A stretch of DNA of 6,355 bases from positions 1-6,355 of the IMG/VR virus record IMGVR_UViG_2684622670_000003. One strand, 5' to 3'. Source of the stretch: a virus. Lineage: Duplodnaviria; Heunggongvirae; Uroviricota; Caudoviricetes. Positions 2,058 to 6,355 of this stretch are shown piece after piece (position 1 is the first letter of the stretch; each line of letters begins with the position of its first letter). The notes under the pieces are model-generated. The model saw only the letters and a program-made list of their open reading frames with translations. It had not been told where the DNA came from and searched no databases. The translations under genes and the position numbers were made by a program.

Positions 2058-2573
2058 TCATCGCAAAACATCCTCCGCGCTTATCAGTTCGTTCCGCTTC
2101 AGGTAGTCCATCGCCTTCTCCGGTAATTTGCAGTCTGGATTAGCTTTTTTCAGTTGACTGACCAGTCGTTTAACCCACATTGTTAATTCGCCAACCTGAT
2201 TACTGGATGCTAGTGGATTGTCGGCTTTACCCAGAATGACAGCACAGCAGGCCTCTTTGAGTACCCAATCAACAGCATCTTTCCATGCTCCTGTTTCGAC
2301 TGGTGGGTTCTCACGCTTTACCTGTTCATAAAAGCGCACGGCTTTAACCAGTCCTTCTGATATCACAGGGACTGGCGGGGTAGTGAATAAGGCCTGAATC
2401 TCATAGCCCGGCCTGTCGTTGCCCCCCTCTTTTGTCGGTACATATTTCCAGTCACCAACCCACATCTTCTCCTGAAAGTCCGTAACGCCTTTTTTCACGT
2501 AGCGATATCGCCATGCAACTGGTTTTGCCTGCCCTGCCGTTTCATGCCCTTCCTGATAATTAATCTCGCTCAT
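2058..2573 (-). CDS. hypothetical prophage protein, 171 aa
   Basis: ORF track. ATG at 2573 overlaps the TGA stop of the upstream 58-aa ORF (ATGA overlap). Sequence MSEINYQEGHETAGQAKPVAWRYRYVKKG...; no motif I can name. Confidence 0.6.
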   Translation of the reverse strand: MSEINYQEGHETAGQAKPVAWRYRYVKKGVTDFQEKMWVGDWKYVPTKEGGNDRPGYEIQALFTTPPVPVISEGLVKAVRFYEQVKRENPPVETGAWKDAVDWVLKEACCAVILGKADNPLASSNQVGELTMWVKRLVSQLKKANPDCKLPEKAMDYLKRNELISAEDVLR

Positions 2574-2746
2574 TCATCGCCCCACTCATCACAATATGCT
2601 TCGACCGGAGTTTTTCCTGCTTCGTAGTCATCACGCCAGGCTTCAGCATCAGCAGCACTTCCACCACGTAACTCTGCATAGTCTATTAACAGTTCATGCC
2701 ATTCTTCAAAACTGACGTTGTATTTAGTTGAACCAAAATCAGCCAT
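2570..2746 (-). CDS. small highly acidic protein, 58 aa (not in ORF track)
   Basis: My own translation of the minus strand: MADFGSTKYNVSFEEWHELLIDYAELRGGSAADAEAWRDDYEAGKTPVEAYCDEWGDE. ATG at 2746 with GAGGAAG about 7 nt upstream. The start overlaps the stop of the 60-aa ORF (ATGGCTGA) and the stop overlaps the start of the 171-aa ORF. 16 Asp/Glu against 4 Lys/Arg. Confidence 0.5.
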   Translation of the reverse strand: MADFGSTKYNVSFEEWHELLIDYAELRGGSAADAEAWRDDYEAGKTPVEAYCDEWGDE

Positions 2747-2921
2747 TTTGTTCTTCCTCTTCGTCTTTTATTTCGTGATATGAGTAATTGCAGTAGTTAA
2801 AGAAAATTTCTTTTGCTTCGTCATGAATTTCATCAGGTGTTGCGTCATCGTCCACTTCGAATACATCCTCAAAATCTCCACCAGCTATTCCCGTTTCAAT
2901 AATTATTTTGAATTTTCGCAT
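2739..2921 (-). CDS. small highly acidic protein, 60 aa
   Basis: ORF track. MRKFKIIIETGIAGGDFEDVFEVDDDATPDEIHDEAKEIFFNYCNYSYHEIKDEEEEQNG; 19 Asp/Glu against 5 Lys/Arg. ATG at 2921 has a weak SD. AT-rich coding sequence compared with its neighbours. Confidence 0.5.
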   Translation of the reverse strand: MRKFKIIIETGIAGGDFEDVFEVDDDATPDEIHDEAKEIFFNYCNYSYHEIKDEEEEQNG

Positions 2922-3014
2922 TTCACTACCGCCATTTCGAACGGCCTCCTGATGTTCTGAGGGTGCAGAAATCCCTCCGGTTAAGGATTAAATTTTTAAC
3001 AGTGCTAAATTTAA

Positions 3015-3371
3015 TTATTCAGTTCTTGATTTTGCCGCCCTGCGTATCCGCGCTTTCGCGTTACGCTCAATCTGAATTAGCTTTTCTATATTTCTCCGCC
3101 TTTCCCGCTCCTCCTGGCGCAAGAGCCTTACATCATCTGCCAGTCTGGTTTCTCTTTTCGCCACAGAGAGCATCCAGTCAAATGGCTCCACAACTGCACC
3201 GCAGATTTTACAGCGGACCTGACGCTCTTTTTCGTCAACACGGACAGAGGCGTGATGACAATATGGTCTTTCCGATGGCTCATAAAGAAAATTAACCTGA
3301 TTACGTGGGTCATCCTCTTTTACCGGAAATAAAACAATATTACTTAACTCATCTTCTGGTTTTATTTCCAT
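3015..3371 (-). CDS. hypothetical protein, 118 aa, with a Cys/His zinc-ribbon-like motif and a basic, probably coiled-coil C-terminus
   Basis: ORF track 3015..3428 begins with GTG; I trimmed it to ATG at 3371, which has AAGGAGAGGAG immediately upstream. Contains CHH...CKIC, then a Lys/Arg/Glu-rich tail (RLLRQEERERRRNIEKLIQIERNAKARIRRAAKSRTE). Confidence 0.6.
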   Translation of the reverse strand: MEIKPEDELSNIVLFPVKEDDPRNQVNFLYEPSERPYCHHASVRVDEKERQVRCKICGAVVEPFDWMLSVAKRETRLADDVRLLRQEERERRRNIEKLIQIERNAKARIRRAAKSRTE

Positions 3372-3428
3372 GCTCCTCTCCTTTGATGCGAATGCCAGCG
3401 ATAATTGAAGCCTGATAGCTAATTTCAC

Positions 3429-3851
3429 TCACAGTACCGCCTCCTGAAAATTACCCTGATAAAACGACAATATGCGCTGCATAACTTCGCTCTTCCGACA
3501 CTCGCGACAGATTATATTCAGGCGCCTGTCGTAGCGACGTATTTCTCCATCTGGTAATGACCATATAAGGTCAGGATCAACCACAACCAGTTTCTTTGAC
3601 TTTGCTTTCGACATCTTTTCGATGGCTTTCATCCAGTCCTTACGTGCCTGCTCTGAAGGAAATATTCCATACCCTGAGCCATATACAACACCACTGGCTA
3701 CCAGCTCTTTCGTCAGAACTTCTATCAGATGTCTCGTCGCCCCGGTTTCATTTTCCAGTTGTTTACGCGTTTTCCGCCCATCCCTGCGTACCAGTTCCAC
3801 AATGCGCGCCTTCACTTCTTCCCGCTCTTCCTGTGTAAATACTCTTGCCAT
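3429..3851 (-). CDS. hypothetical protein, 140 aa, N-terminal winged-helix-like segment
   Basis: ORF track 3429..3866 begins with TTG; I trimmed it to ATG at 3851, which has GGAGG 5 nt upstream. It starts 15 nt after the stop of the 256-aa gene. Sequence MARVFTQEEREEVKARIVELVRRDGRKTRKQLENETGATRHLIEVLTKELVASGVV... Confidence 0.6.
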   Translation of the reverse strand: MARVFTQEEREEVKARIVELVRRDGRKTRKQLENETGATRHLIEVLTKELVASGVVYGSGYGIFPSEQARKDWMKAIEKMSKAKSKKLVVVDPDLIWSLPDGEIRRYDRRLNIICRECRKSEVMQRILSFYQGNFQEAVL

Positions 3852-3866
3852 AAGTGCCTCCGGCAA

Positions 3867-4637
3867 TCACTTTTCCGACACAATACGACTGGAAGAATCG
3901 ACAATCTGTCGGACAATATCCCGGTGCTTGTTCAGCTCCCGCAACGCGGCGCAGACTCGCTCCCACTTCTGGACATGACTTTTCGCCCGACGCAGTTCGC
4001 GGTTTGCCATATGCAGCGATGGTAAAACCAGGTCATCCGCTCGCGTTTCGGTAAACGATGGTAGCGACTGCACAATGCCCGCCACAGTTTCTGTTTTAAT
4101 ATCTTCCTGTGTTGCCGCTTCCTGTACTGGTAACGCAACACCTGCTGGCTGAGGAAAGGCCTTACCATCATTTTCCGTTACCGGCACGGATTTCGGCTCT
4201 GCTGGTAACTTATCGCCCGGCATGCAGTAACGAAATTTACCGTTCTGATTAACGCGTGCCAGCCGCCCCGTTGCGGTTACCACCGCCAGCGTGGAAGCAA
4301 CCTTGCGAGTACTGACACCGAACTTACCCGCCAGTTCCTCACACGTTTTAGCCCCCTCCTGACCGATAAACTCAATCATCATGTCTGCGGTAACTTTTTG
4401 TTCGACCTCCCCGGTCAGCATATCCTGTGCTTCAGATTTTACTGGCCGCTCTTCGGTTACCCGGGATTCACCTTCGCCAGCCAGAAACCAGGTGTGACCA
4501 GTTTTATCAACGACGCCATTTCTTTTGAGTTCCCACAGCTCGTTCAGCACTTCTTCACTACTGATATCAAGTCGCGTAGCCAGTTCTACCGACGTGGCTT
4601 TTCCCATCGCTTTCAGTGCGTCAAAAACAGTCTCCAT
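3867..4637 (-). CDS. hypothetical prophage protein, 256 aa, with two tandem winged-helix-like segments and an acidic/Pro-rich linker
   Basis: ORF track. ATG at 4637 with GGGAGG 6 nt upstream, 32 nt after the P-like stop. Two similar segments (VELATRLDISSEEVLNELWELKRNGVV... and CEELAGKFGVSTRKVASTLAVVTATGRLARV...) suggest duplicated DNA-binding-type folds. Family name not verified. Confidence 0.7.
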   Translation of the reverse strand: METVFDALKAMGKATSVELATRLDISSEEVLNELWELKRNGVVDKTGHTWFLAGEGESRVTEERPVKSEAQDMLTGEVEQKVTADMMIEFIGQEGAKTCEELAGKFGVSTRKVASTLAVVTATGRLARVNQNGKFRYCMPGDKLPAEPKSVPVTENDGKAFPQPAGVALPVQEAATQEDIKTETVAGIVQSLPSFTETRADDLVLPSLHMANRELRRAKSHVQKWERVCAALRELNKHRDIVRQIVDSSSRIVSEK

Positions 4638-4669
4638 AAATTTCCTCCCGGTAAAAATTACTTCTCAAC

Positions 4670-5335
4670 TCAAACAAACCCAGCCGCTTTCCGGCGTTCA
4701 TATTCCTGTTTCAGCAACTCAATTGGCGTTGGTCCCAACGGGCGTTTTGGTGCCGCCAGTTGTCGCCGTACTGGCGGAACGCTCAGGCCGTTACTAACAT
4801 GCTTTGCCCATTTCGTCAGCTGCCGTTCTGCAAGCCGTTTTAATTCCCCTTCGGTCATCTGGCGTTCAATCCCCTTTGAACGCATCTCGAGGCAAATGTG
4901 ATACAGCACAGGCTGAGACCACGGGTACTTATCACTTCCGTCGTATCGCCAGGACTCATTGCGCCAGCGGCGGTACTCCTCCATCACAGCATCCACCGTC
5001 AGACCAAATGGATTGGCCCCGCTTTCCGAAATCAGCGCCACAAACTCAGCCAGGTCCGGAGGCCATGTTTCACCCGCCCGGCAGCGGTCCATGCACTCGC
5101 GGCAGACCTGCCGGATTTGCTGCTCAGTCATCGCGCCAATCTGTGCAATCCAGAGCTTCGAAGGTGCGGCCCCGTTCTTCTGGGTCCAGCGGTTCGAATA
5201 AACCTCCCCCATGAGTTCCCACAGCTTCCAGGCCGTTTCCGTCGCTGATAAATCCGTTTTCACGTTCCCACTGCTCACGTGCTGCCCGAATTTCCTGAAC
5301 TGCCCGTGATGCGGTGCCACCTGGTGCTGCTGCAT
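4670..5335 (-). CDS. phage replication protein P-like (helicase loader)
   Basis: ORF track. The C-terminal two-thirds resemble lambda P as I remember it (PDLAEFVALI..., YPWSQPVLYHICLEM..., LTEGELKRLAERQL...). ATG at 5335 has GGGGG 6 nt upstream and a TAA one codon further up. The start is uncertain because the first ~70 codons overlap the O-like ORF in another frame; internal ATGs at 5212 and 5131 are alternatives. Confidence 0.6.
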   Translation of the reverse strand: MQQHQVAPHHGQFRKFGQHVSSGNVKTDLSATETAWKLWELMGEVYSNRWTQKNGAAPSKLWIAQIGAMTEQQIRQVCRECMDRCRAGETWPPDLAEFVALISESGANPFGLTVDAVMEEYRRWRNESWRYDGSDKYPWSQPVLYHICLEMRSKGIERQMTEGELKRLAERQLTKWAKHVSNGLSVPPVRRQLAAPKRPLGPTPIELLKQEYERRKAAGFV

Positions 5336-6164
5336 GGTTTACCCCCTTGCTGACTGGTTTAACCTGCGCCCTGACGTGATTTACGTGACGGGCGAATTTC
5401 TGCTCCCACTGAATCTGCGTAAACACTTTCCCCTCCGCTGTCCAGTAGTCCCGGAAGGCGGCAAGTTCAGCAGGTGTAAATTCTGTCTCCGGCAAAGCCA
5501 TCCCCCACAACGCAGCCCGTCGTCGAAAATCCCGTGACGGATACCAGCTATCGGTCATCGGAAATTTTCCGATGGGTTCGCTCAGACCATCCAGGAATAC
5601 AGGGGGTACAGCCTGTAACGACAAAACTTCCCGCTCACTGGTCGGAGCACTCTCGCGTGCGTTATGTGTGGGGTTTAGATCTTTGGGTTCCTTTGGGTTC
5701 CGTGATCCGTTTTTGGGTGTCTTTGATGGAAAATTTGGGTGTCTTTGGTTATTTTCCATGCAGCTAAGAGATCCGTTTTTGGGTCTGTTTTGTGCTGAAA
5801 CATAACCATTTTCGGTACTGTTTTTATTAACAGCACCAATTTTACTCACCTTTAAAGACTCCCGTTTTTGGGTGTATTCAGGCTCGGCAACGCTTTCTTC
5901 TACACCGATAAGTCGGTACACCACAATTTGCTTTGTTCTGCCTTTTCTCTCACCGGTATCAACAATTAACCCAATCTCCATCAGGTGTCGTAAGCTGTCC
6001 TGCACAGTCTTTTTGTTCAGTTCCGTTACTTCTGCCAGTGCAGATACAGACGGGTATGCACACAAATCGGCACCGCACATATCAGCAAGCCAGGTCAATA
6101 CAGACTTACTGGATGAACTGCCGGTTTTCACCTTTTTAGCCCATCGTAGTGCATCGATACTCAT
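5124..6164 (-). CDS. phage replication initiator, O-like (N-terminal HTH DNA-binding domain, iteron-encoding linker, C-terminal DnaT/replisome-organiser-like domain)
   Basis: ORF track 5124..6239 begins with TTG; I trimmed it to ATG at 6164, which has GGGG 5 nt upstream. The N-terminus MSIDALRWAKKVKTGSSSSKSVLTWLADMCGADLCAYPSVSALAEVTELNKKTVQDSLRHLMEIGLIVD is HTH-like. The linker is rich in PKNG repeats encoded by the iterons. The C-terminal segment TPAELAAFRDYWTAEGKVFTQIQWEQKFARHV is typical of phage O/DnaT-like replication proteins. It is followed by a P-like gene. Confidence 0.65.
   Translation of the reverse strand: MSIDALRWAKKVKTGSSSSKSVLTWLADMCGADLCAYPSVSALAEVTELNKKTVQDSLRHLMEIGLIVDTGERKGRTKQIVVYRLIGVEESVAEPEYTQKRESLKVSKIGAVNKNSTENGYVSAQNRPKNGSLSCMENNQRHPNFPSKTPKNGSRNPKEPKDLNPTHNARESAPTSEREVLSLQAVPPVFLDGLSEPIGKFPMTDSWYPSRDFRRRAALWGMALPETEFTPAELAAFRDYWTAEGKVFTQIQWEQKFARHVNHVRAQVKPVSKGVNHAAAPGGTASRAVQEIRAAREQWERENGFISDGNGLEAVGTHGGGLFEPLDPEERGRTFEALDCTDWRDD
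5681..5880. repeat. Iteron-like direct repeats inside the O-like gene (putative prophage origin of replication)
   Basis: Plus-strand copies: GATCCGTTTTTGGGTGTCTTTG (5704..5725), AAAATTTGGGTGTCTTTGG (5730..5748), GATCCGTTTTTGGGTCTGTTTTG (5769..5791), CTCCCGTTTTTGGGTGTATTC (5859..5879), plus tandem CTTTGGGTTC x2 (5681..5700). An AT-richer stretch (about 5800..5860) lies between copies 3 and 4. Lambda ori likewise sits inside gene O. Confidence 0.5.
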
Positions 6165-6355
6165 ACGAACCCCTGGCAGACATTTGTTTATCTGCAAAGT
6201 AATATTGATATTGCTGACGATACGCATGCTTGAAAGCAATAGCTTTTTCTATAAGCTCGTCAGTCTCACGTTCCACAACAGATGGATCCGCAAAAAGCAG
6301 CCCGGACTCCACCACATCGCCATATTCTTTGTTTAACCCGGCGATCATGTACGTA
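6136..6355 (-). CDS. hypothetical protein, C-terminal part (frame open to the right edge of the window)
   Basis: ORF track 6136..6348 (70 aa from an internal ATG), but the frame stays open to position 6355, so the true start is probably outside the window. The stop overlaps the O-like start by about 29 nt. Sequence ...MIAGLNKEYGDVVESGLLFADPSVVERETDELIEKAIAFKHAYRQQYQYYFADKQMSARGSYEYRCTTMG does not resemble lambda cII as I remember it. Confidence 0.4.
   Translation of the reverse strand, partial: TYMIAGLNKEYGDVVESGLLFADPSVVERETDELIEKAIAFKHAYRQQYQYYFADKQMSARGSYEYRCTTMG

Follow-up and report, generated by a model that had tools for sequence, protein, structure and literature searches.

Three genes behind a P-like helicase loader in a lambdoid Escherichia coli prophage appear to form two mosaic pieces, one with a remote homologue of lambda Ren

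The window, a 6,355-nucleotide stretch of DNA from IMG/VR virus record IMGVR_UViG_2684622670_000003, contains three minus-strand genes at positions 3015-4637, here called g1, g2, and g3, with predicted products of 256, 140, and 118 aa. Our analysis indicates that these are real but ordinary phage genes: a very common E. coli prophage pair, in which a YdaW-type gene precedes a long relative of lambda ren, and then a small zinc-ribbon gene that is unrelated to the pair and appears to come from a separate cassette. We established the gene structures and family memberships, the homology of g2 to Ren, and the independent mobility of g3; from these we infer the functions of all three genes, including an anti-exclusion role for g2 and, by association, for g1. 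The explanation that we favor, and hold to be probable rather than secure, is that the interval forms part of the delayed-early rightward operon of a Rac/Qin-type lambdoid E. coli prophage, composed of two mosaic pieces, in which g1 and g2 would provide Ren-type protection.

On the minus strand, g1 (3867..4637) starts with ATG at 4637 and stops at 3867, g2 (3429..3851) starts with ATG at 3851 and stops at 3429, and g3 (3015..3371) starts with ATG at 3371 and stops at 3015. All three ATG starts agree with RefSeq calls in strain XH992 and have upstream Shine-Dalgarno sites (GGGAGGAAATTT, GGAGGCACTT, AAGGAGAGGAGC); the longest-ORF starts, TTG at 3866 for g2 and GTG at 3428 for g3, both lack such a site. 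The 15-nt g1-g2 spacer (3852..3866, minus strand) holds the GGAGG Shine-Dalgarno site of g2, and the 57-nt g2-g3 spacer (3372..3428, minus strand) holds that of g3. The gene sizes, spacers, and Shine-Dalgarno sites given in a previous sequence-only reading thus agree with the ORF list and the minus-strand sequence. Based on family matches with E values of 7e-98, 4e-33, and 7.5e-56, respectively, g1, g2, and g3 are genuine genes and not chance ORFs.

Upstream of g1, and separated from it by 32 nt, lies a P-like helicase loader gene (4670..5131, minus strand; stop at 4670; Pfam Phage_lambda_P E 1.5e-16, phrog_109). Its start is probably the one that overlaps the O-like gene's stop, and the mechanical ORF extends to 5335; at the equivalent place in XH992, the RefSeq call is a 153-aa “replication protein P.” Downstream of g3 are a DUF7167 gene (2739-2921, minus strand; PF23768 E 2.4e-14) and a gene for a 58-aa protein (2570-2746, minus strand); both are partners of g3 in a single cassette and lie outside the interval that the sequence-only reading described. 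In the closest genome, the gene order is dicA/dicC/ydaT, O, P, g1, g2, g3, hokD, DUF968, RusA, Q, and the interval is up to 95.7% identical to genes that RefSeq lists, in the same arrangement, as DUF1627, DUF977, and hypothetical. Promoter, terminator, repeat, and Rfam scans found no such element in the interval: the promoter scan, run over 2700-4800, returned no promoter-like site, and the two terminator-like matches, both inside g2, did not score above shuffled sequences. The sole Rfam match in the window, sok, lies outside the interval.

The g1 product is assigned to the DUF1627/YdaW family, with a match to Pfam DUF1627 (PF07789) over residues 91-245 (325.2 bits against a cut-off of 28.1, E 7e-98) and a full-length match to phrog_630 (E 6.6e-136). 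Using BLASTP, we aligned it to YdaW of the K-12 Rac prophage with 57% identity over 154 aa (E 1e-60), a similarity that spans both winged-helix-like segments. Whereas K-12 YdaW is cut off after about residue 151, g1 is the intact form; likewise, K-12 Rac has lost LygF, whereas g2 is present here. The order ydaU-ydaV-ydaW in K-12 Rac corresponds to O-P-g1 here, and phage Rac-SA53 has the matching order of initiator, loader, YdaW, and LygF, albeit the Rac-type loader is DnaC-like and the loader here is P-like. The truncated K-12 YdaW was a hit in an overexpression screen, as a “blocker” of the retron-Sen2 toxin (bioRxiv 10.1101/2020.06.22.160242).

Two winged-helix-like segments had been read from the g1 sequence, and we regard them as supported, although not proven. 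Pfam helix-turn-helix (HTH) models matched residues 1-50 and 85-137 below threshold, and AlphaFold predicted three-helix bundles with short strands at residues 4-48 and 84-127, a disordered linker after each bundle, and a long C-terminal helix at residues 197-255; however, the overall pLDDT of this model is low (54.6), and Foldseek against the PDB returned only nonsignificant winged-helix/HTH matches (best E 0.059). The model is poor and the alignment behind it shallow because only near-identical Escherichia proteins were among the best 120 matches listed; the homologue search with g2 likewise listed only such proteins among its best 120. We rejected the idea that g1 is a duplicated Ren: hhalign found only generic winged-helix similarity between g1 and g2 (24% and 5% probability), and the C-terminal Ren motif is absent from g1. 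Direct comparison of g1 with lambda Ren gave no alignment.

The g2 product, a DUF977/“LygF” protein, matches Pfam DUF977 (PF06163) with 114.7 bits against a cut-off of 22.1 (E 4e-33); in a search with the 145-aa ORF, the match covers residues 6-141 and positions 1-134 of the 134-position profile. PHROG 142, “Ren-like exclusion protein,” matches both g2 (E 2.4e-41) and lambda Ren (E 1.6e-41) at full length. When 65 g2 alleles were aligned with hhalign against Ren, represented by a single sequence (80/80 Ren loci in IMG/VR are 99-100% identical to lambda Ren), the result was a probability of 94.9% (E 4.5e-8) over 89 columns, with g2 residues 15-132 aligned to Ren residues 5-93. When an HMM of g2 alleles was searched against every ORF in lambda 38-44 kb and in the complete P22 genome, Ren was its sole match (E 3e-8). 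Based on these profile comparisons, g2 is a remote, long-form homologue of lambda Ren whose function may have diverged. We call the homology remote because the Pfam DUF977 model had no match to lambda Ren at E<1 and pairwise BLAST between g2 and Ren aligned just a 20-residue C-terminal motif.

Two features are common to Ren and g2: an N-terminal winged helix and the C-terminal motif N-x-h-x-(K/R)ECRxSxxMxRhLxxY. The conserved C-terminal motif given for g2 is DGEIRRYDRR-NIICRECRKSEVMQRILSFY; conservation in g2 peaks over residues 105-134, and the motif that it has in common with Ren is its best-conserved part. The winged helix of g2, which had also been read from the sequence, is supported by agreement among the PHROG matches, the hhalign comparison with Ren, and the published assignment of DUF977 to winged-helix proteins by HHpred/COMPASS (PMC2686095). 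The 96-aa lambda Ren is 44 residues shorter than g2 and lacks an insertion of ~30-40 residues that separates the two conserved parts of g2. Like ren, g2 is predicted to be a delayed-early gene of the slot that follows the helicase loader; in this window g1 lies between P and g2, whereas in loci L107 (DnaC-like loader) and L084 (DnaD-like loader) g2 comes directly after the loader, as ren comes after P. The view that none of the three proteins resembles a ren or nin product is therefore wrong for g2, given PHROG 142, the hhalign probability of 94.9%, and the sole match in lambda and P22. Among the lambda and P22 products compared (NinB-NinI, NinX/Y/Z, and Ren), g2 is similar to Ren alone and to no nin protein. 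Of the three genes, g2 is thereby assigned to the ren family, and g1 and g3 belong to other catalogued families (DUF1627/YdaW and phrog_1621). No nin family was matched by g1 in searches of Pfam and PHROG models, and no Pfam nin family by g3.

In loci whose g1 and g3 are 86-98% and 95-98% identical, respectively, to those of the window, g2 is just 55-77% identical; such a divergent g2 between conserved neighbors would fit allele exchange of a specificity factor. “LygF” is a locus name only, mentioned in a few Salmonella genome notes without a function. In the literature that we searched on LygF, DUF1627, DUF977, and YdaW, the winged-helix assignment and the YdaW screen match were the only functional leads.

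In the classic genetics of Toothman and Herskowitz from 1980, ren reportedly lets lambda escape Rex exclusion. The anti-Rex phenotype is known from lambda Ren alone; by analogy, g2 likely provides Ren-type protection from Rex-like exclusion, and g1 may do so by association with g2. In the proposed mechanism, the g1-g2 pair would constitute the first mosaic piece and would occupy the “ren slot” that follows the helicase loader, and both proteins would be produced together with O and P during early lytic growth. No catalytic motif is present in g1 or g2, and both most likely work through protein or DNA binding; a nucleic-acid-binding-like, nonenzymatic domain make-up, as noted from the sequence, was borne out for all three proteins. 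A Ren-like g2 would prevent Rex-type abortive-infection exclusion from being set off by the replicating phage, possibly through contacts with the replication complex or with exclusion proteins, and g1 would support or widen this protection. Two-hybrid contacts of the Rex proteins with both O and Ren have been reported (bioRxiv 10.1101/2021.04.19.439022). The second piece would begin at g3, which in E. coli travels with the DUF7167 gene and the 58-aa gene and elsewhere in Enterobacterales closes the nin region, ahead of Q. The window does not extend far enough to reveal a Rex-like system against which Ren-type protection would be directed.

Rather than countering exclusion, g1 and g2 could be replication accessory factors whose target is the phage origin or the O-P-DnaB complex and which might, for example, modulate helicase loading. 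Winged-helix domains are frequent in replication initiators, g1 and g2 are co-transcribed with O and P, and they are always found directly behind a helicase loader of any type: P-like here, DnaC-like in Rac and in loci L016 and L107, and DnaD-like in locus L084. Thomason et al. describe ren as “likely involved in DNA replication.” However, the same P family occurs in phages without g1 and g2, including Yersinia locus L262, in which unrelated genes follow P, and g1 pairs with varied loaders (a P-like gene is adjacent in 48/75 loci), which argues against a specific loader partnership. Lambda ren is moreover dispensable for replication, as established by lambda genetics, which counts against an accessory role. 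We consider the replication reading unlikely, although it keeps some weight; where the domain composition had seemed to fit a regulatory or exclusion module as easily as a replication accessory, the Ren link tilts the choice toward counter-exclusion.

The g3 product matches phrog_1621 (E 7.5e-56; residues 1-117 aligned to positions 1-120 of the 134-position profile), a large family that has no Pfam model and comprises at least 1578 clusters at the 50% identity level. All 59 of the distant relatives that we sampled belong to this family, and 58/59 also match phrog_8538 and phrog_4865. The protein has an acidic disordered N-terminus, a zinc-ribbon-like hairpin (CxH-x13-CxxC), and a basic helix of 55 residues with the near-invariant motif NIEKLIQIERNAKARIR; the signature common to g3 relatives is C-x-H...R-x3-C-x2-C-G-x3-DPFD, with a helix that ends in ERNxKARIR. 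The CHH...CxxC motif described from the sequence is present, but its first histidine, H39, is not conserved; the likely zinc ligands are C38, C54, and C57, which are invariant, and H40, found in at least 90% of relatives. The highly basic helical tail was also confirmed: AlphaFold predicted a beta hairpin at residues 43-61 and a single helix at residues 63-117 (pLDDT above 90 at residues 80-110), and residues 82-118 contain 14 K/R versus 6 D/E. The helix is probably dimerising.

Neither the sequence nor the fold of g3 has a significant match to any characterised protein, and PDB sequence searches with all three proteins returned nothing below E 0.06. The best matches of g3 are to TFIIB-type zinc ribbons, and all are below significance: 21.1 bits against Pfam Zn_Ribbon_TF (PF08271; E 2e-4), for which the cut-off is 29 bits; subthreshold matches to the same model in 7/59 relatives; and the TFIIB N-terminal domain (1pft, E 0.48) in Foldseek. 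We rejected P22 NinY/NinZ and the lambda nin proteins as identities of g3, as a g3 HMM searched against lambda 38-44 kb and P22 gave a best E of 0.7.

Outside Escherichia, the relatives of g3 in PHROG 1621 mostly take the final position of the nin region, immediately before Q, and in other lambdoid phages they occur between NinG, NinH, RusA, or YbcO and Q, whereas here g3 follows a Ren-like gene and heads the DUF7167 cassette. Across 104 loci of divergent relatives outside Escherichia, the Q gene starts ≤300 nt downstream of the g3 relative in 75, with four Q families represented. These positions, together with the TFIIB-type matches, speak for a reading in which g3 would be a small zinc-ribbon protein that either docks on RNA polymerase or helps or adjusts antitermination by Q. 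From one genus to another the C-terminal helix hardly varies, and this near-invariance points to a conserved target in the host, such as nucleic acid or the transcription machinery. However, in this window and in most E. coli prophages g3 is ~4.5 kb upstream of Q, and in Stx phages it lies in the early-left operon, within the Ea22 region. Adjacency to four interchangeable Q types would be expected from mosaic module boundaries alone, and it may merely reflect conserved gene order. Given the subthreshold zinc-ribbon matches as well, we think it improbable that g3 takes part in the late transcription switch. There is a similarly small chance that a broader version holds, in which the g3 family would be an early or late-switch factor acting on a conserved host component (RNA polymerase or nucleic acid) and g1 and g2 would be a two-protein Ren-type counter-defence pair.

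The sequence-only reading had treated the three genes as a block in a variable slot after P. The slot is as described, as the genes occupy the lambdoid position downstream of P and the gene content there varies, but the block does not travel as a unit. Each of g1, g2, and g3 alone occurs in 1679-2781 of 5426 complete E. coli genomes (31-51%), whereas the contiguous block, covered at 80% or more, occurs in 319. Our survey of loci combined a GTDB genome scan with a single peptide pattern, which found 12 loci, with contig look-ups and IMG/VR scans that used divergent queries. In these data, g1 and g2 are adjacent in 65/77 loci; g3 is found no more than 3.5 kb from g1 in 26/55 and immediately behind g2 in 5. 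Partial combinations were all seen, including g2-g3 without g1 in 37 of the 65 g3-anchored Escherichia loci, and elsewhere g1, then a different HTH gene, then g3.

We used blastn to align the window against phage ArgO145; this analysis identified a match at 2971-3399 with 94% identity that ends at 3399, and the phage matches that span g3 alone all end at window positions 3399-3401, which places a recombination (mosaic) junction in the g2-g3 spacer at ~3399, the point at which similarity to the Ea22-region cassette of Stx phages stops. In ArgO145, g3, the DUF7167 gene, and the 58-aa gene are co-linear with 92-94% identity, and the latter two genes co-occur with g3 in many IMG/VR loci. Among the 104 loci outside Escherichia, g2 occurs in none, so that it never adjoins the g3 relative, and g1 occurs in one. 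Based on these alignments and gene neighborhoods, the three genes are not one unit and appear to be two adjoining mosaic pieces. Searches of NCBIfam assigned neither g2 nor g3 to a family and gave g1 weak winged-helix matches only, and no protein rose above noise against the PADLOC-DB defence models, which gave no match to g2 or g3 and only weak winged-helix-level CARF/Csa3 matches to g1 (E 5e-5 or worse).

That the three genes are one functional module, regulatory or for superinfection exclusion, inherited and acting together, is thus very unlikely, even though they are tightly packed and co-directional without internal signals, the block is kept at up to 95.7% identity in the 319 genomes, g2 is upstream of g3 in 60 of the 65 g3-anchored Escherichia loci, and one Salmonella locus has DUF1627, DUF977, and g3 all within 3 kb.

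For the biology of these prophages, the block is a near-copy of genes that RefSeq already annotates and that between one third and one half of complete E. coli genomes carry. The g3 family, which is large and shows conserved placement before Q genes of four families, could reasonably be chosen for an initial study of function. PHROG already groups DUF977 with Ren, and our comparisons independently confirm this link, which gives DUF977/“LygF,” a very common uncharacterised E. coli prophage gene, a testable function, namely escape from Rex-like abortive infection, and which could help explain how Ren works.

All coding in the window lies on the minus strand; in that reading, the gene for the P-like helicase loader stops at 4670 and is followed, after gaps of 32, 15, and 57 nt, respectively, by g1 (4637-3867, 256 aa), g2 (3851-3429, 140 aa), and g3 (3371-3015, 118 aa). 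A GGAGG-type Shine-Dalgarno site precedes each ATG, and RefSeq has the same three genes called in E. coli XH992 (95.7% block identity). Because the matches to known families are strong (g1 to Pfam DUF1627, E 7e-98; g2 to Pfam DUF977, E 4e-33; g3 to phrog_1621, E 7.5e-56), chance ORFs are ruled out, and the gene block seen in the sequence-only reading is confirmed. No catalytic motif was found in the three proteins, and none of them matched defence-system models. A scan of positions 2700-4800 found no sigma-70-like promoter and only two terminator-like matches, both inside g2 and not above shuffled controls; with no internal promoter or terminator, g1-g3 would lie in a delayed-early transcript with the O-like and P-like genes and are predicted to be co-transcribed early together with these replication genes.

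The replication initiator (5124-6164, minus strand) is not of the lambda O type but an HTH protein that carries a DnaT DNA-binding domain (PF17948, E 8.7e-17). The mechanically called P-like ORF (4670-5335, minus strand, 221 aa) overlaps it by ~200 nt, and the true start of P probably lies at 5131, for a product of 153 aa, the length called in RefSeq. At the window edge, a 70-aa ORF (6136-6348, minus strand) corresponds to the C-terminal portion of a gene of the YdaT family. In XH992, the YdaT-family gene lies upstream of the initiator and adjoins dicC and dicA, so the window belongs to an immunity and replication region of the Rac/Qin type. Positions 1360-1684 carry a complete type I toxin-antitoxin locus, hok/mok-sok, with the Hok/Gef ORF at 1360-1572 (PF01848, E 3e-23) and sok at 1510-1684 (Rfam, 113 bits), all on the minus strand.

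The g1 protein, which also matches phrog_630, shares 57% aa identity over residues 1-154 with the product of K-12 Rac ydaW; by sequence, g1 is the intact counterpart of that truncated gene. Two tandem winged-helix-like segments had been described in g1, and they are supported by below-threshold Pfam HTH matches at residues 1-50 and 85-137 and by the AlphaFold model, in which two disordered linkers and a C-terminal helix of 59 residues accompany units of three helices/short strands at 4-48 and 84-127. However, this falls short of proof, as the overall confidence of the model is low (pLDDT 54.6) and Foldseek returned only winged-helix/HTH matches (Lrp, Csa3, ScpB, DtxR), none of them significant. 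At two related loci (L016, 4090-4407; L091, 3440-3844), a g1 variant of 238-253 aa has no g2 downstream, and the slot holds a small HTH protein of phrog_323, annotated as “transcriptional regulator, D5-like.” Because this protein replaces g2 there, the position after g1 seems open to alternative DNA-binding proteins.

DUF977 proteins, to which a winged-helix fold was assigned earlier (PMC2686095), are labelled “LygF” in Rac-type phages. Over its whole length, g2 matches phrog_142, “Ren-like exclusion protein” (E 2.4e-41), as does lambda Ren (E 1.6e-41), and pairwise BLAST aligned a C-terminal motif, NIICRECRKSEVMQRILSFY with NLVFKECRQSAAMKRVLAVY. An alignment of 65 g2 alleles from related loci matched Ren with 94.9% probability (E 4.5e-8, g2 residues 15-132 to Ren 5-93), and with the HMM from these alleles, a scan of every ORF in lambda 38-44 kb and in the complete P22 genome gave Ren as the sole significant match (E 3e-8). 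Since the Pfam DUF977 model does not reach Ren, the relationship is remote; g2 is nevertheless identified from these profiles as a homologue of Ren with consistent architecture, and the earlier view that none of the proteins resembles lambda nin products is qualified by g2, which does resemble ren.

Among 5426 complete E. coli genomes, g1-like DNA had a match in 2781, g2-like DNA in 2583, and g3-like DNA in 1679, each at ≥90% identity for g3. Close relatives of g1 anchored a set of 80 IMG/VR loci; there, g2 adjoins g1 in 65 of the 77 with enough downstream sequence, the upstream neighbour is a P-like gene in 48/75, and g3 lies within 3.5 kb in 26/55 (immediately after g2 in only 5); identity to the window copy is only 55-77% for g2, against 86-98% for g1. 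Of 65 loci anchored on g3, 37 carry g2 without g1, 5 carry g1 without g2, and the other 23 carry both. Three loader types and all gene combinations occur across individual loci, with orders such as a DnaD-like loader, g2, g3; a DnaC-like loader and g2 separated from g3 by two inserted genes; and a DnaC-like loader followed by g1 and another HTH gene, with g3 lying farther downstream. The early-left Ea22 region holds g3 in Stx phage ArgO145, and window positions 2525-3399 (g3, DUF7167, and a 58-aa gene) are 92-94% identical to that region; this homology ends at 3399, within the g2-g3 spacer. Based on the co-occurrence counts, the 3399 junction, and the settings of g3 outside Escherichia, the interval joins a g1-g2 pair to the opening gene of another cassette: g1 is the common partner of g2, and g3 is mobile independently of both. 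The three genes thus belong together only in part and do not form one module: g1 and g2 are usually adjacent, but g3 moves apart, and the whole block was at least 80% covered in one place in only 319 of the 5426 genomes. The earlier interpretation is accordingly supported in part.

A 171-aa protein (2058-2573, minus strand) matches phrog_660, phrog_924, and phrog_250 (Ea22-like group, function unknown) and no Pfam family; the boundaries of its gene vary among loci (28-100% coverage), and this variation suggests a further recombination hot spot. E. coli-type g1 or g3 copies with 88-96% identity in records labelled as a Collinsella MAG (L168), Ursidibacter (L172), and an Actinobacillus phage (vB_Apl-pPE4) seem to reflect contamination or mis-binning of contigs, not true host range.

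Lambda escapes Rex exclusion through ren. In two-hybrid assays, both O and Ren were contacted by Rex proteins (bioRxiv 10.1101/2021.04.19.439022). On these grounds, we propose that g2 may prevent the replicating prophage from setting off Rex-type abortive infection and that g1 may aid g2 in this protection. Strong divergence among g2 alleles between otherwise near-identical flanks would fit a specificity factor under exchange, and the recovery of K-12 ydaW as a “blocker” of retron-Sen2 (bioRxiv 10.1101/2020.06.22.160242) is a weak lead that points the same way. The main rival is that g1 and g2 are replication accessory factors, a reading weakened by their occurrence with three unrelated loader types. 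It is also weakened by the dispensability of ren in lambda.

The family of g3, phrog_1621, is annotated as of unknown function. Across 26 Enterobacterales homologues, C38, H40, C54, and C57 of the previously reported CHH...CxxC motif are invariant, whereas H39 varies; the C-terminal stretch LRxEExxRRxNIEKLIQIERNAKARIR is almost invariant. AlphaFold predicted an acidic, disordered N-terminus, a beta hairpin at 43-61, and a single long helix at 63-117 (pLDDT >90 at residues 80-110). Among 1.84 billion representative proteins, profile searching identified 1578 clusters at E≤1e-3. In a 59-row alignment of g3 with 58 sampled family members, C38, C54, and C57 are kept in all 58, and H40, R50, L98, N104, and R108 are each kept in ≥90%. 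All 59 sequences match phrog_1621, and 58 also match phrog_8538 and phrog_4865 (functions unknown); none has a Pfam family, with TFIIB zinc-ribbon matches below threshold only, and g3 has no significant PDB match by sequence or by fold. As a putative dimerising zinc-ribbon/basic-helix protein whose helix is invariant, g3 probably binds a conserved host molecule.

Seven database proteins (P0001, P0004, P0012, P0031, P0039, P0041, P0043) have g3 fused to Ea22-like, DUF1133 (Q-like), DUF1627, or DUF977 sequences; the fusions, which mirror the varied neighbours of g3, probably arose as gene-calling or frameshift artefacts. In the Serratia P0369 cluster, g3-family proteins of 146 aa are listed together with genuine RusA proteins of 127 aa that have no similarity to them. 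Read-through RusA-g3 fusions probably caused this as a clustering artefact, since the RusA and g3 genes of Serratia prophages overlap by 4 nt.

Outside Escherichia, we considered about ten genera, using GTDB loci (Kluyvera, three species of Erwinia, Photorhabdus, Pantoea) and contig look-ups (Serratia, Yersinia, Klebsiella, Pluralibacter, Salmonella). In all but Salmonella, the g3 homologue is the last gene of the nin region, behind NinG, NinH, RusA, YbcO, or DUF968, and is followed, sometimes after a 43-75-aa ORF, by the late antiterminator gene Q (PF06323, PF06530, PF03589, or phrog_753). The Salmonella homologue is found 2.2 kb downstream of DUF1627 and DUF977, with no Q gene called nearby. 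Two divergent family members served as anchors for a further 104 IMG/VR loci; among these, Q starts within 300 nt downstream in 75 and lies inside the 3-kb flank in 94. Although the loci lack phylogenetic independence, the four Q families are independent. None of the 104 has g2, and one has g1. Any tie between g3 and either Q or RNA polymerase is speculative.

Each of the three genes falls in a catalogued family, near-identical copies are already annotated in RefSeq, and DUF977-type proteins and Ren are already grouped by PHROG. What seems not to have been spelled out before in the searchable literature is the size of the g3 family, given that it has no Pfam model, and its conserved position before Q; together, these represent a modest annotation insight rather than a new kind of system.
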